64,000 nucleotides of DNA from Octopus sinensis (taxonomy: Eukaryota). Positions 4,682-57,523 of this stretch are shown piece by piece. Numbering within the stretch: the stretch's first letter is position 1; each line of letters starts with the position of its first letter. The stretch covers positions 41,788,001 to 41,852,000 of the forward strand of contig NC_043009.1 of the NCBI RefSeq assembly GCF_006345805.1, written 5' to 3'. The position numbers were made by a program, and so were the translations under genes. Under the pieces are notes generated by a model that saw only the letters and a list, made by a program, of their open reading frames with translations, made no database searches and had not been told where the DNA came from.

Positions 4682-5170
4682 TATATTAAATTAAGATAAA
4701 ACCACTATTAGGAAATCAAACATGAAAAACATGCCAATACATAAAATATATCTATATATATCCACCAAAATTAAGAGGAATCCACTAATGTTGACAAGCC
4801 TGTATGCTAGATATAGACTCACTCGTCATTTCCCACGAAGAATGTGTTTTCAAACCCAAATCGCGATTAAAAATAAGACAAATGAAAATATACAAAATAA
4901 AAAAAAACTTACTACTTACTAATTAGTTTCACTTGTTAATATTTACGTATATGGATACGCAAAAAGCTGCAAGATCATCGGCGTAGTCTGTGGTTTACTG
5001 ACAATTTCCAAACTAGATACAGGGCGCTCGAACCGCAATCCAGCATGCATAAAGTCCAACAAATTTATTTATTTGTATCCATCAAATACTTTGGCGCTGA
5101 GTCAAAATTATCTGCGTTAAGAACTACAGCAAGGATGTCCCCGGCTAGAGAACATTTTTTATATAAAATT
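4682..5170 (-). mobile_element. Non-coding repeat in (TA)n carrying a hammerhead motif (Penelope pLTR-like)
   Basis: Flanked by (TA)n. Its start attaaattaagataaaaccactatta recurs at 19561-19625. It contains the HHR at 4911-4987. Confidence 0.6.
4911..4987 (-). ncRNA. Type I hammerhead ribozyme motif (core CCGAUGA variant)
   Basis: Minus strand reads actacg CCGATGA t-cttg...ttgcgtat ccat atacgtaa...caag-t GAAA ctaattag TA agtagt. Stem I is actac/gtagt, stem III is palindromic (actaattagt) and the cleavage triplet is GUA. The core has U4->C. Confidence 0.7.
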
Positions 5171-5387
5171 AAATATAGAAATTGATATTAATATATATAT
5201 ATATATAGATATATATATATTAAATTCAAATTACGATGAATGTACAAACAAACGAAGTTTGCTTTAGAAGCGTTGAGATGTCTTAAGAAGTTAATTATGT
5301 GATTTTAAATTCTCAAACGCAAGATAATGCAGGATAATAATATAGCCTGAACAGGATAAGCTACCCCTATTTTGCAGAAAAAAGTGT

Positions 5388-5468
5388 TGGCGGCCGGCTA
5401 TGAGACTCGAACTCACACCTCTGTGATGACGCGTCACGGTGCACTGAACCAAATAAGCTAAACCGCAC
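5388..5468 (-). pseudogene. tRNA-like element (possibly Thr-CGT derived) with Pol III boxes and T6 terminator
   Basis: Minus strand has A-box TAGCTTATTTGG, anticodon arm GTGA-cgcgtca-TCAC and T-arm GTGAG-TTCGAGT-CTCAT. It ends in ...GCCA, followed 4 nt later by TTTTTT (5378-5383). The acceptor stem is imperfect. Confidence 0.6.
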
Positions 5469-6094
5469 ACATCACAAATTCTTACGCAAATTTAAGATAT
5501 ATAGAAATCTCGATTTATAACACGCTATCACACATACACACACATATTATACTATTGTCTATATTCTTTATATACACACACAAACACATAAAAACGAGCT
5601 CACATATATGTAAATGTGATCATGCACTCGACAGTTGTCGAAGTCATTTGCACTTTTTACATGCATTAAATAATTTAAAGTTCAGTGATGTATTTCAGCA
5701 ATGCTGTTGTTTAACCCATGGTCAGCATCCTTCCAGTGAATCAAGAAGAAAGTGTGGCCGCCGTGTGTGTACCATTATTTGCTTACAGACACAATATGAG
5801 AATACATTGCTTAATATATTTTGTTCTTAAGACAATAGACTGTAACTAGAGGAAGATTTGATTTTTATTTCTGACAAATATAGTGGCCTCGTTGCTCGTG
5901 GTTTTGTGAAGTGTAGGAATTAAACCATCTTTGAGATTTGTGACCGTGTGATATGTTGACTTTTATTTTTTTTAATATGCTCTACAGGAAAGCAATTGGA
6001 TAAAATTATGTATAGATTTAGGTGCAGGGTGCAGCAGAAAAGCCTTTCATACAAAACTGTGTAACAAAATTTTTAATTATTTTCATCTTTGGCC

Positions 6095-6484
6095 GGTAAG
6101 TGTTATTTCCTATTTGCTTCTATCTAGAAATCAAAGGAAATGACTACTATTCCCTTCAAACTTTGCTTTTGTGACTGGGACATCAATGTTTTGAAACTGA
6201 CCTATTTTCTATTACACCTCACATAGATTTACCGCTGAGTTGCCGAAGCAGAAATACCGTTATAGCAAGTATTCTGCTCAATACCATAGATTTTCTTGAC
6301 CATAACCACTTGAGCATGCCGCTCTAGTGACTGACAGTATGTGGATATCTGGTCATGAGCAGGAGTAGTAGGGGAGCATCATAGCCATGTATTGAGAGGG
6401 ATTCTTTGGAGTTTGAAGAAATTCAAAAGTTTGAAGGAAATATTAGCCATTTTTCATACTTTCTAGGAAATAATAGTTGCTACC
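6095..6484. mobile_element. MITE-like element with imperfect TIRs enclosing a LINE-tail fragment
   Basis: aaatgactactattcccttcaaactttg (~6138-6165) is an imperfect inverse of caaaagtttgaaggaaatattagccattt (6424-6452). An outer ttatttccta/taggaaataa pair is also present. The internal 6262-6417 matches 55355-55522. Confidence 0.55.
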
Positions 6485-6897
6485 CAAGGACAAAAATCGT
6501 GTTAAACAGTGTAATTTACAGAGCTATTAATTAGGTAGTGGAGAAATTACACAGACTATGATAGTATCGTCATATAGTTCTCTTTTCTTTTTCTTATTTA
6601 CCAAAACCGTTGAAACCAGTGTACATCTTGTATTTGCTTCTGACACGTATATCAAAAATAGTGAATCTGGGTGGTGTTTTTTTGTGGCAACCTGTAAATA
6701 ATAATAAAAAAAACATTCGCCTACTTTATTTTCATTCGCTTTCACTTCTCCAATTGGCTAATGTGAGAACAAGGAAAAAGAAAAAAAGAAATGGCAAATT
6801 CTTCAAATAATCTTTTTATTCCTATTTTTACTTGAATGTCTCTTAATTTATGGAAAAATGATATAGACAGTAATATAATGCCTTTTAAAATACAGAC

Positions 6898-6943
<46 letters not shown>

Positions 6944-7384
6944 CATAAACACCAAAGAAAAAAAATAATAAATAACCAACAAAACACAACAAATGTGTTC
7001 TTTCTAATATTTATTTTATATAGAACGATGCAGAATAAAAGGCAAAAATCGAAAAAAAAAAAAAATGAAACTAGTGAAAACGAGAGACATTCAAGATAAC
7101 ATATATCGCAAACCATTCTAAATACTTTCGAATGTATTACCCTATCGGTGATGAGATGTTGTCTTATATTCTTTTAGAAAAATTGTCTATGGACGGTAAA
7201 ATGGATTACATATTGATGCTAGTTAAAAGTTTGCGATCTCACGTTGCCAATAATTCAACAATTACAGAGATAAAGAAAGAAGAAGAAAAAAAAAAGCTCA
7301 GAAAGAAATATATACAAGCGAAGCTATACCTCTAAATCATATAGATATAAAGAGAAAGAAATAGATAGATAGGTAGAGAATGAT

Positions 7385-7446
<62 letters not shown>

Positions 7447-7641
7447 TGAGTGTGAGAGCCAGGGAAAAGCTTCCGACGTCAAATATCTTTGCACACCAGA
7501 GATTGCGTCTGAATAACTTACAGTGATTCAAATATGAGAAGATTATTTGGCAATGAGGCAAACCGCTATGAAGCACAATCGGTAAATCTTAAACATTTGT
7601 ATGGATATTACTCACATACGTACATAAAAATGCTACGTATA

Positions 7642-7684
<43 letters not shown>

Positions 7685-55340: not shown

Positions 55341-55810
55341 TATAAAAGATGGGCTACAGCAAATATTCTGCTCAATACCACAGATTTGCTTGTCAGTTGT
55401 TTGACCTAAACCAGTTGAGCATGTCCCTTAGTGGCTGACAATATGTGCATCTCTGATCACGAGCAGAAGTAGTGGGGGAGAATTATAGCCATGTGTTGAG
55501 AAGGGATTCTTTGGGGTTTGAATAATTCACCGCTGGAAACATGGGTGGTTCTTTCAACATCCTTAAACAATCCTTATTCAGGGACCTTTTGAGCGGGATG
55601 GGCTATTCAACCTGAAGAAATTTCTAACTGGGCCCCACCTGCAAGGTCATGTGCTGTTTATCTTAATATGAGATCACTATGTCGCGCACATATGGTTGTG
55701 ATGCCTGTGCATGGTGTACCCTTATCAAACGGGTAGTCATGATGGGTATATTGGGCTTCGTGTATTTTACCCCAGTGTCACTTTGATGGCATGAACTGCT
55801 CGCTCACTCA

Positions 55811-55812
<2 letters not shown>
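55341..55812 (+). mobile_element. LINE 3' UTR-like repeat inserted in (TAA)n
   Basis: Flanked on both sides by (TAA)n. Related pieces lie at 6262-6417, 56985-57040 (inverted 3' end) and probably 56865-56958. Confidence 0.6.
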
Positions 55813-55841
<29 letters not shown>

Positions 55842-55859
55842 CATTATTATTTCAGATTT

Positions 55860-56243
55860 TTTTCCACAAGGGCAGCTAGGTGAAGGTGGGGATGGGTCGA
55901 TTACATTGATTCCAGTGTTCGACTGGTGCATATTTTATCGATCCCGAAAGGATGAAGGGCAAAGTCGACCTCGGCGGAATTTCAATGCAAAACGCAACGA
56001 TGGCGAAATACCGCTAAGTATTTCGTCCAGCGTATTAACAATTCTGCTAGCGCGCCGCCTTATAATGATAATTCTTTCTACTATAGGCACAAGGCGTGAG
56101 ATTTTTGGGGAGGGGAAAAGTCGATTACATCGGCCCCAGTGCATAACTGGTGATTATTTTATAGGACCCGAAAAGATGAGAGGCAAAGTCGACCTCGGTG
56201 GAATTTGAACTCAGAATGTAGTGACAGACGAAATACTGTTAAG
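55860..56243 (-). mobile_element. Two adjacent SINE family A copies
   Basis: Reverse-complement matches at 55860-56062 and 56070-56243; the second is truncated in its tRNA head. Confidence 0.85.
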
Positions 56244-56244
56244 G

Positions 56245-56790
56245 GAGGATGATAGAGATGTGACCCTCCTGATACTGGAAGGCTTCTAGAGATAATGGAG
56301 GAACTCCACTGTCCGATATTTGCTTGAAACTCTAGGAGCAAGTGCCCTCTCCAATTCCTTCTCTTCGACTCACAGATCTTAGAGAAGTACCATCCACTCT
56401 TGCCATTTTCGCAACTTTCCCCCGCCTTTCAATAAACTCGCTCGAGGACAGCACTTCCCTCTCCACTCTCAATTTACTTTTCAAGTGAAACTTGAAGAAT
56501 TCAATGAGAGCTCTACAAAAGAGGAATGTATCTGTTCTCATGTTTTTCAGCCTTGTCCACCAAACAACCTCTTTCGCCTCAACCACCAGGCAAAGGAAAA
56601 CTGCCTTGACTACCCGATTGACGGAGGGCGGCGTTGCGATCATCACTCGTCCGACAGACGGATCCGTTCCCACACGTGACAACAGCTGTTCAGCATAACC
56701 CCACAAGTCAGCAATGCCCGGACACTGAGCGAGGTCGTGCAGAACGGTTTCGTCACTCTGCGAACACCTCGCACAAGTCCGTCTGACAGC
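56245..56790 (-). mobile_element. L1/Tx1-clade LINE ORF2 C-terminal fragment (zf-RVT-like)
   Basis: In-frame translation CARCSQSDETVLHDLAQCPGIADLW...AKEVVWWTRLK...FFKFHLKSKLRVEREVLSSSEF shows a CCHC zinc knuckle and an AK..IW..R-like motif. Confidence 0.8.
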
Positions 56791-57354
56791 AATAACAATA
56801 ACAGCAACAACAATGACAACAACAACAGTAACAACAACAATAATAATAATAATAATAATAATGATAGATGCAGTACCAGACAGTGGTTCTCATGACTTCT
56901 CGTCTTAACTGATTGGAGTGTTATCATATAAATCGTTTTGTGTTGGTATAAAAGCTACGTGGGCACCAGTTCAACCAACACTAGTTGAGAGTGCAGTGCA
57001 TGCCATCAAATTGACACTGGGGTTAAATACACGAAGCCCATACACGGTTTGTATATCTTAACTTTTCAAACCTCCGCGCAGACGCAAAACATACCCGGCG
57101 ACAGAGAGCATGCCGGTAAAAAATTTTACGAACACATTTATCAAGTAATATGTAAACATAATCAAAAAGGGTAATAACATAAGTTATTATTACCAGTGGC
57201 CTAGCACAAAAGACGAATTAGTCATTAGACAAAATATTATTCATATAGAAATATAATAAAAGGCTCCCAAATAAGGAAGCTTAGTGCTAGAGACACAAAG
57301 AGGGATAAATTCATGAAAAGAATGACAATCAAAAACATTTACCATTAAATATAT

Positions 57355-57434
57355 ATCCCAGACTGATCAGTTTCTACCTATTTCTAGCAAAACAGACAGA
57401 ATATGTTTGCCAAGGCAAAGTTCGTCAGTTAGAT
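57355..57434 (-). ncRNA. Type I hammerhead motif with extended stem II; inverted 5' half-copy at 57479-57512
   Basis: Minus strand reads atctaa CTGACGA actt...ttggcaaac...gttttgctag...aggta GAAA ctgatcag TC tgggat, with palindromic stem III and a GUC triplet. The inverted half-copy keeps the matching stem I arm tccca and stem II acct. Confidence 0.7.
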
Positions 57435-57523
57435 CTACATGTGCTCTAAAGCTCTGTGCATCTAAGATTAAGAAGGCTTCCCACTGACGAACCTTGCCTT
57501 GGCAAACATATTATGATTATGTT

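Follow-up and report, generated by a model that had tools for sequence, protein, structure and literature searches.

Type I hammerhead motifs of five unrelated families, probably associated with Penelope-like elements (PLEs), in a 64-kb window of the Octopus sinensis genome

We analysed hammerhead motifs in a window of 64,000 nucleotides from Octopus sinensis (NCBI RefSeq assembly GCF_006345805.1, contig NC_043009.1, positions 41,788,001 to 41,852,000). Both strands were read and scored, and repeats were mapped by masked self-BLAST, an unmasked repeat search having given mostly microsatellites. The 14 positions quoted in a first-pass annotation of this DNA represent 10 independent insertions (Table 1), with the copies at 11413/11651, at 47193/47664/47992 and at 49520/50253 each belonging to a single insertion. 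Five unrelated families are supported, namely A (11413/11651), B (47193/47664/47992), C (48801), D (4911) and E (57355). The loci at 16825 (F), 49520/50253 (G) and 26475 (H) are plausible relics, and those at 8906 and 45779 look like chance matches, so that of the annotation's count (some ten loci, six or more families) two loci are left without support.

Table 1. Hammerhead motifs, their insertions and endonuclease relics in the window.
Feature	Position	Strand	Remarks
Family D hammerhead relic	4911..4987	-	score 17.8, 0.07 expected by chance
Locus 8906, not supported	8900..8960	-	GAAA-CG-U half, weak stems; 21 equal matches expected per shuffled window
Family A hammerhead	11413..11504	-	strict descriptor; score 21.6
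Family A second copy	11650..11729	+	other arm of inverted repeat 11382-11759
Relic F	16823..16878	-	plausible; score alone within noise
Relic H	26474..26526	-	weak; supported by context only; score <0
PLE endonuclease C-terminal relic, decayed	26631..26922	+	two collinear frames
Locus 45779, not supported	45770..45815	-	both core boxes mutated; score -3.2
Family B insertion	47058..48275	-	471-nt unit; self-BLAST, alignment, protein comparison
Family B hammerhead	47193..47236	-	score 24.3
Family B copy in partial tandem	47664..47706	-	one A of GAAA missing; alignment
Family B copy in inverted arm	47992..48036	+	one A of GAAA missing; alignment
Family C insertion	48298..49111	+	self-BLAST, sequence, tblastn, multi-copy contigs
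Family C hammerhead	48801..48858	+	intact; strict descriptor; score 31.8, 0 expected by chance
Relic G	49520..49563	-	plausible; post hoc descriptor
Relic G second arm	50251..50294	+	98% inverted repeat 49455-50360; not independent
PLE GIY-YIG endonuclease relic	52809..53380	-	2,154 homologs at E<=0.001
Family E hammerhead relic	57355..57434	-	perfect-core test; score 11.4
Family E inverted truncated copy	57478..57513	+	alignment, sequence

The motif at 48801 showed a 5-bp stem I, CUGACGA, an extended stem II, GAAA, the palindrome UCGG-U-CCGA and an AUA site. Only this motif and the one at 11413 passed a strict type I descriptor (at 48806 on the plus and 11498 on the minus strand), with CUGANGA and GAAA cores, a U16.1-H17 site and stems I-III all present. 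The latter has full cores separated by 62 nt, CAGCUG, a GUA site and a weak stem II, and the second copy of this family, 43 nt from (TA)n, carries a GUG site and is predicted to be inactive. Family B at 47193 has full cores, a short stem II with U.U at its base, the palindrome UCAC-U-GUGA and an AUA site. Family D contains U4C in the core, a stem II base of U.U followed by 4 bp, CUAAUUAG and a GUA site. Family E has full cores, CUGAUCAG, a GUC site and a damaged stem I, and in its inverted truncated copy the CCCA preceding the core pairs with the UGGG 3' of the cleavage site. All stem III strings quoted in the annotation were found in the sequence, and lesions are present in most copies.

A log-odds scan gave four matches with a score of at least 16 (48806, 47230, 11498 and 4981). 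In 247 local dinucleotide shuffles of the window such matches averaged 0.21 and never exceeded 2; the reversed window gave two. At scores of at least 8 there were 19 real matches versus 15.0 in the shuffles, and the weak tail of scores is therefore noise. At the score of each locus, the matches expected per shuffled window were 0.00 for 48801, 47193 and 11413, 0.07 for 4911, 0.97 for 11651, 3.8 for 57355, 11.6 for 16825, 21 for 8906, 24 for 47992 and 40 for 49520/50253. The motifs at 26475 and 45779 scored below 0, and 47664 was left unparsed by the scoring owing to its missing A. Perfect CTGANGA...GAAA cores with a palindrome of at least 6 nt and a T occurred five times (11429, 11712, 47213, 48839 and 57374); 300 shuffles averaged 0.063 such motifs, and none had more than 2. 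With stem III left unscored, it was fully palindromic in three of the four matches at scores of at least 16 (none in shuffles) and in 6 of 26 at scores of at least 8 (shuffle mean 0.41), the palindromic share in shuffles being 2-3%. The enrichment of palindromes in stem III was thus borne out also when palindromes were left out of the scoring, and hit rates in the 64-kb window lay above those of the shuffled control at scores of at least 16 and equalled them at scores of at least 8. Rfam gave no match to any hammerhead model in the window at the gathering threshold, and hammerhead families were absent among the best 150 of 291 matches at E<=1. That list was dominated by microsatellite matches to microRNA models. 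When seven motifs were aligned with MAFFT, stem III came out misaligned.

Among the plausible relics, F carries U4C, a 7-bp stem II, CAGCUG and a GUA site, lacks stem I, and lies 77 nt from (TA)n and next to a 214-nt palindrome (16937-17150). Relic G has a U3-A8 core variant, a 4-bp stem II, GCAA for GAAA, CCGG and a GUA site, and a post hoc descriptor of it gave one match in 3.7% of 300 shuffles. In relic H both cores are perfect and stems I and III are broken; it is found 87 nt from (TA)n and about 110 nt from an endonuclease relic on the opposite strand. The nearest (TA)n to the locus at 8906 is 1,165 nt away. The locus at 45779 sits in a 150-nt (TA)n-flanked stretch, and no second copy of it was found in the window; a 16-letter pattern derived from it gave 119 metagenome-contig loci with best alignments of 20-29 nt, which is chance. 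Two further candidate motifs, 32522(-) and 63261(+), were not accepted on inspection, and a half-hammerhead lookalike at 53380-53447(+) was discarded for its overlap with the decayed frame that encodes the linker of the endonuclease relic.

The family B insertion consists of a 471-nt unit, a 228-nt partial tandem and an inverted copy running into the next unit, with (TA)n at both ends, and alignment showed that the unit junction recurs in the inverted arm. The family C insertion begins with an inverted piece (48298-48434), followed by a partial tandem with a period of 502 nt and (TA)n at the end. There are two hammerheads in direct tandem in B, one of them damaged, and one hammerhead in 1.35 units in C. 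The insertions end 160 nt (B) and 260 nt (C) past the cleavage site, in both cases at TATA-like letters of the unit. No PLE coding match was detected by tblastn in either insertion.

That hammerhead families would be multi-copy held for both families tested (B and C), with 3,169, 4,061 and 2,188 contigs matching the B and C stretch under three organism labels over all identity bands, i.e. 2,188-4,061 contigs per DNA-sized run. Run X10, for which the RNA label is a guess, gave 107 contigs and has no bearing on expression. Other family C copies showed 48836 T>C and two loose-end strings. These suggest a change from A-U to G-C in stem II and from C-G to U-A in stem III, where we infer the linkage across different contigs. 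Among the rows listed, nearly all other copies carried 48803 C>T, by which a C-G pair of stem I becomes U.G unless its partner also changes. In other family B copies, position 48005 is an A or a G and pairs with U48016. The missing A of GAAA was carried by other family B copies in run X1 (158,752 of 350,422 summed depth, 12 contigs) and was seldom restored in run X2 (831 of 104,658), summed contig depth not being taken as copy number.

As noted in the annotation, the motifs are associated with (TA)n and with inverted repeats. (TA)n followed within 260 nt downstream in 8 of 10 insertions against a background of 0.236 (P ~3e-4, with the threshold chosen afterwards), and in four of the five supported families (P 0.013). 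Six of 10 insertions lie in or beside inverted repeats, with the motifs pointing outward (self-BLAST). Families B and C combine a partial tandem with an inverted 5'-truncated copy, and an inverted copy was found in A, E and G as well. Stem III hairpins were all at 0 to +6.0 kcal/mol and the self-duplexes at -8.3 to -13.9 kcal/mol. For 48801 the homodimer MFE was a double-hammerhead fold (-33.7 versus 2 x -12.6 kcal/mol) and the monomer MFE buried the core. In the family B dimer MFE stem II was shifted onto G12-A13, and the active fold was absent from the monomer and dimer MFE of A, E, F, G and H.

The decayed endonuclease relic gave 9.4 and 9.2 bits versus a best of 7.4 in 12 shuffles. The GIY-YIG relic encodes a CxCx5C linker and CxxC before the conserved E, and the CCHH cysteine pair is absent between its two Y-x-G boxes. 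A Neptune-like assignment was dropped on the linker, which points to the Hydra clade. Read by its motifs, this relic has Hydra-clade features, and its homolog P0153 showed RWR and DKT (the Hydra-clade RT motifs are RWK and DKT). A word-based search among longer proteins gave no match; Pfam recognized neither the relic nor its two long homologs, and among 8 other homologs gave one sub-threshold GIY-YIG match. A hammerhead was not found downstream of the GIY-YIG relic, and only the weak locus at 26475 adjoins an endonuclease relic, on the opposite strand. Because neither a sense hammerhead joined to either endonuclease relic nor a reverse transcriptase relic was found in the window, we infer the mobiliser from co-occurrence. 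The link to PLEs proposed in the annotation holds up.

The hammerheads of the window add further members to an already published kind. Hydra-clade PLEs, among them Hydra-1_Obim of Octopus bimaculoides, share this hammerhead anatomy and prefer (TA)n (Craig et al. 2021, PMC8557442, section 11 and Files S1-S2). The motifs listed for them in File S2 combine a stem III of 4 bp and a loop of 1-3 nt, often with a U after A9 and a U before GAAA, and are mostly located ~100 nt from the 3' end. Shared features are the type I fold near the 3' end, a stem III of ~4 bp with a loop of 1-3 nt, additional nucleotides on the flanks of stem II, the (TA)n preference, inverted 5'-truncated copies and the CxCx5C endonuclease linker. 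The window differs in that the cores of families A, D and E are 44-62 nt apart and that no ORF was detected in B and C, whose hammerheads are 160-260 nt away from the end of the insertion. The sequences differ as well: none of six twelve-letter motifs of the window occurred in the supplement, in which line breaks could hide a match. With the minimal hammerheads of metazoan PLEs (Cervera and De la Pena 2014, PMC4209133) the window shares a palindromic helix III and predicted dimer, many unrelated families per genome mostly with single motifs, opposite-strand pairs 100-700 bp apart and the U3-A8 core variant. Its stem III is longer, however, with palindromes of 6-9 nt, and the conserved G10.1-C11.1 pair of these motifs is replaced in the A-E copies by A-U, U-A, U.U or a mismatch; this pair is absent too in many Hydra-clade motifs of File S2. 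The stem III conservation that had been called convergent is real as to the palindromes but nothing new, being the published form of PLE hammerheads (PMC4209133; PMC8557442 File S2).

Non-LTR retrozymes (Cervera and De la Pena 2020, PMC7229834; Li et al. 2026, bioRxiv 10.64898/2026.07.22.740005) likewise consist of tandem AT-rich units that lack an ORF, measure a few hundred nt and carry a single type I hammerhead each, and have been proposed as non-autonomous PLE derivatives. The window arrays differ in having only ~1.35-1.5 direct units with inverted copies and (TA)n ends. Their units measure 471 and 502 nt, compared to 150-450 nt (PMC7229834) and 51-972 nt (bioRxiv 10.64898/2026.07.22.740005). 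The preprint includes no mollusc among the groups listed as sampled, and only one of nine predicted retrozyme dimers was cleaved in vitro.

Taken by their sequence features, the supported motifs are very probably type I hammerheads in dispersed repeats, likely 3' ends of (TA)n-targeting PLEs, probably Hydra-clade ones, or their non-autonomous derivatives. Most copies in the window are predicted to be inactive. Two hammerheads might pair where their stems III are self-complementary and thereby release unit-length RNA from a tandem transcript; this RNA may circularise. The reverse transcriptase and endonuclease of a PLE would then copy it into a (TA)n tract that has been nicked, continuing past one unit length, and a strand switch would leave the inverted 5'-truncated copy. 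That B and C end at TATA-like letters past the cleavage site fits priming by microhomology on a template that is either circular or an uncut multimer.

Possibly, if rather doubtfully, all supported loci are 5'-truncated 3' ends of autonomous PLEs and separate non-autonomous ribozyme elements are absent. PLE insertions are mostly 5'-truncated with inverted copies (PMC8557442), A, D, E, F, G and H are without a tandem period in the window, and endonuclease relics are present; against this stand the 471- and 502-nt periods, the B unit junction recurring in the inverted arm, and the lack of a match of either unit to PLE proteins. It is improbable that MITE-like DNA transposons or fold-back elements gave the inverted repeats and carry hammerhead-like letters passively. 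TA-flanked inverted repeats are also a mark of Tc1/mariner MITEs, and the arms of G and of the palindrome beside F are 96-98% identical, but the arms are unequal and truncated on the inner side, B and C contain internal direct tandems, and the motifs point outward in all six insertions having an inverted repeat. Chance matches chosen by eye in AT-rich, palindrome-rich DNA would account for the 19 versus 15.0 matches at scores of at least 8, the loci at 8906, 26475 and 45779 within noise and the blank Rfam result, but are hardly credible overall, being refuted for families A-E by the shuffle tests (perfect cores with palindrome, and palindromes enriched without being selected for) and opposed by the pair-restoring variants in other copies, and remain live for 8906 and 45779.

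Motif density in the window is 31 per Mb by the strict descriptor (2 in 64 kb) or 78 per Mb by perfect cores (5 in 64 kb), an upper guess since the window was picked for richness; the axolotl has ~4.5 per Mb (126,247 motifs in 28.21 Gb). Only tentatively might this genome hold one of the densest animal hammerhead complements, with tens of motifs per Mb in dozens of families, largely (TA)n-targeting ORF-less 470-500-nt retrozymes on Hydra-clade PLE machinery that would integrate from circular RNA primed at their own TATA letters and not at the ribozyme cut. If the density held genome-wide, many repeats would be re-read as PLE-dependent ribozyme elements. As the kind is already known, the value of the window is that of a census lead. 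The insertion ends of B and C differ from the cleavage site and therefore offer a testbed for the circular-template model of PLE integration.

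The first-pass annotation had listed 14 hammerhead positions, about ten loci from at least six unrelated families, all of which were inspected and resolved into 10 independent insertions. A real hammerhead cluster stood, but it had been over-counted; the candidates at 8906 and 45779 were unsupported in the per-locus shuffle comparison. Two motifs in the window passed a strict hammerhead descriptor. A log-odds scan returned four matches with a score of at least 16 versus 0.21 in local shuffles (n=247), whereas at a score of at least 8 the rates were nearly the same (19 versus 15.0); the distribution is a small real top with a noisy tail. 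Perfect cores with a palindrome of at least 6 nt occurred five times versus 0.063 times per shuffle (300 shuffles). Because all hairpins are inverted repeats and palindromes may have been selected in the first-pass annotation, matches were rescored without the palindromic stem III. Three of the four top matches were still fully palindromic, versus 2-3% of shuffle matches, and the proposed palindrome enrichment holds.

The loci at 48801, 47193, 11413 and 4911 were each supported by their own score in the shuffle comparison, and those at 11651, 47664 and 47992 by alignment to sister copies. Locus 57355 scored just 11.4 but is one of the five motifs with perfect cores and a palindrome; the stem I strand missing from it is retained in its inverted copy. 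Three further loci are plausible relics: 16825, with a 7-bp stem II and without stem I; 49520/50253, with a U3-A8 core and GCAA, whose descriptor, written post hoc, matched in 3.7% of shuffles; and 26475, which consists of cores only and adjoins an endonuclease relic. The core change U4C (CCGAUGA) is common to the unrelated loci 4981 (-) and 16872 (-). Inter-core distances are 44-62 nt in three families (11413-11729, 4911-4987 and 57355-57434), exceeding the length of stem II regions in the Hydra-clade motifs of File S2 of Craig et al. 2021 (PMC8557442).

Repeat and coding features of the window
Feature	Coordinates	Strand	Description
Penelope-like element (PLE) endonuclease relic	52809-53380	-	Hydra-clade motifs; 2,154 homologs
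Second, more decayed PLE endonuclease relic	26631-26922	+	two collinear pieces
LINE-like relic frame	56332-56889	-	weak Pfam match zf-RVT, E 0.011, under curated cut-off
LINE-like relic frame	35375-35665	-	weak Pfam match DUF6451, E 0.0014, under curated cut-off
Family B insertion	47058-48275		471-nt unit, 228-nt partial tandem, inverted copy; (TA)n at either end
Family C insertion	48298-49111		1.35 units with a 502-nt period, preceded by an inverted piece and followed by (TA)n
Local palindrome	3791-4035
Local palindrome	16937-17150		96% perfect across 214 nt
Local palindrome	36730-36881
Local palindrome	41079-41122

The suggested tie to inverted repeats and (TA)n was borne out. The insertions at 11413/11651, 57355 and 49520/50253 are inverted repeats with motifs facing outward, the family B inverted copy continues into the next unit, and relic 16825 adjoins the 214-nt palindrome; no hammerhead was found at the other three palindromes. 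In 8/10 insertions (TA)n lay no more than 260 nt downstream from the site of cleavage (background 0.236; threshold set post hoc). The family B and C insertions end 160 and 260 nt, respectively, beyond this site, where unit letters are TATA-like (47520-47530 and 48600-48612 / 49100-49113), possibly a microhomology for priming at the (TA)n target. Tandem and inverted PLE insertions are described in Craig et al. 2021 (PMC8557442), where Hydra-clade hammerheads, including Hydra-1_Obim of Octopus bimaculoides, are presented with the same anatomy and (TA)n preference.

The larger endonuclease relic begins near (TA)n at 53448, carries a frameshift between linker and nuclease, and retains CxCx5C in the shifted frame. 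Its long homologs contain a reverse transcriptase. A distant homolog of this relic is labelled Argonauta hians. Homolog P0153 has RWR, DKT, the CxCx5C linker, CxxC and CxH, the Hydra-clade marks given in section 11 of Craig et al. 2021. The pieces of the second relic scored 9.4 and 9.2 bits, whereas the highest of 12 shuffles reached 7.4; this relic lies back to back with candidate 26475. Neither a sense hammerhead behind either endonuclease relic nor a reverse transcriptase relic was found in the window.

Copies of 47830-48930 (families B and C) were sought in contigs of 4/24 runs, with 3,169, 4,061, 2,188 and 107 contigs placed per run. Because of these counts, and because the contigs span every identity band and three organism labels, B and C jointly represent diverged multi-copy repeats. 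Position 48005 of B frequently reads A in run X1 and G in run X2, and both bases can pair with U48016. The A missing from GAAA in B is present in X1 (158,752/350,422 of summed contig depth, which is not copy number) and in X5, and rare in X2 (831/104,658). For family C, changes that would be compensatory in stems II and III are suggested by 48836 T>C together with two loose-end strings, all of which derive from different contigs. The change 48803 C>T, nearly fixed in the other copies, would weaken stem I unless its partner changes too. No core substitution occurred among the 40 of 62 variants listed.

Stem III hairpins were computed to be unstable (0 to +6.0 kcal/mol) and self-duplexes stable (-8.3 to -13.9 kcal/mol; CG loci just -1.7), and the predicted 48801 homodimer is a double hammerhead. 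Tandem transcripts would likely be cleaved by such a dimer, the units might circularise, and PLE enzymes would probably copy the RNA in trans into (TA)n as more than one unit. A review repeats the dimer model, and retrozymes without ORFs are described as PLE-dependent in Cervera and De la Pena 2020 (PMC7229834) and Li et al. 2026 (bioRxiv 10.64898/2026.07.22.740005); in the latter 1/9 predicted dimers cleaved. Most hammerhead copies in the window carry lesions.

The cluster of PLE-type hammerheads in this selected window is real and comprises new families of an already known kind. According to Cervera and De la Pena 2014 (PMC4209133), metazoan genomes each contain minimal hammerheads by the thousand, spread over numerous families, with palindromic helix III, opposite-strand pairs and a U3-A8 variant. 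No Rfam hammerhead was detected in the window at the gathering threshold or among the best 150 of 291 matches at E<=1. A giant squid paper counted 235 Rfam hammerheads. We found no cephalopod hammerhead census in the openly accessible literature, and "hammerhead" is absent from the main text of a 2026 Octopus vulgaris repeat paper.

The window is AT-rich and animal-type, with 22% simple repeats after masking. Its interspersed repeats are presumably cephalopod. A 150-nt stretch at 45688-45842, without a second copy in the window, resembles a short interspersed repeat and has (TA)n on either side.
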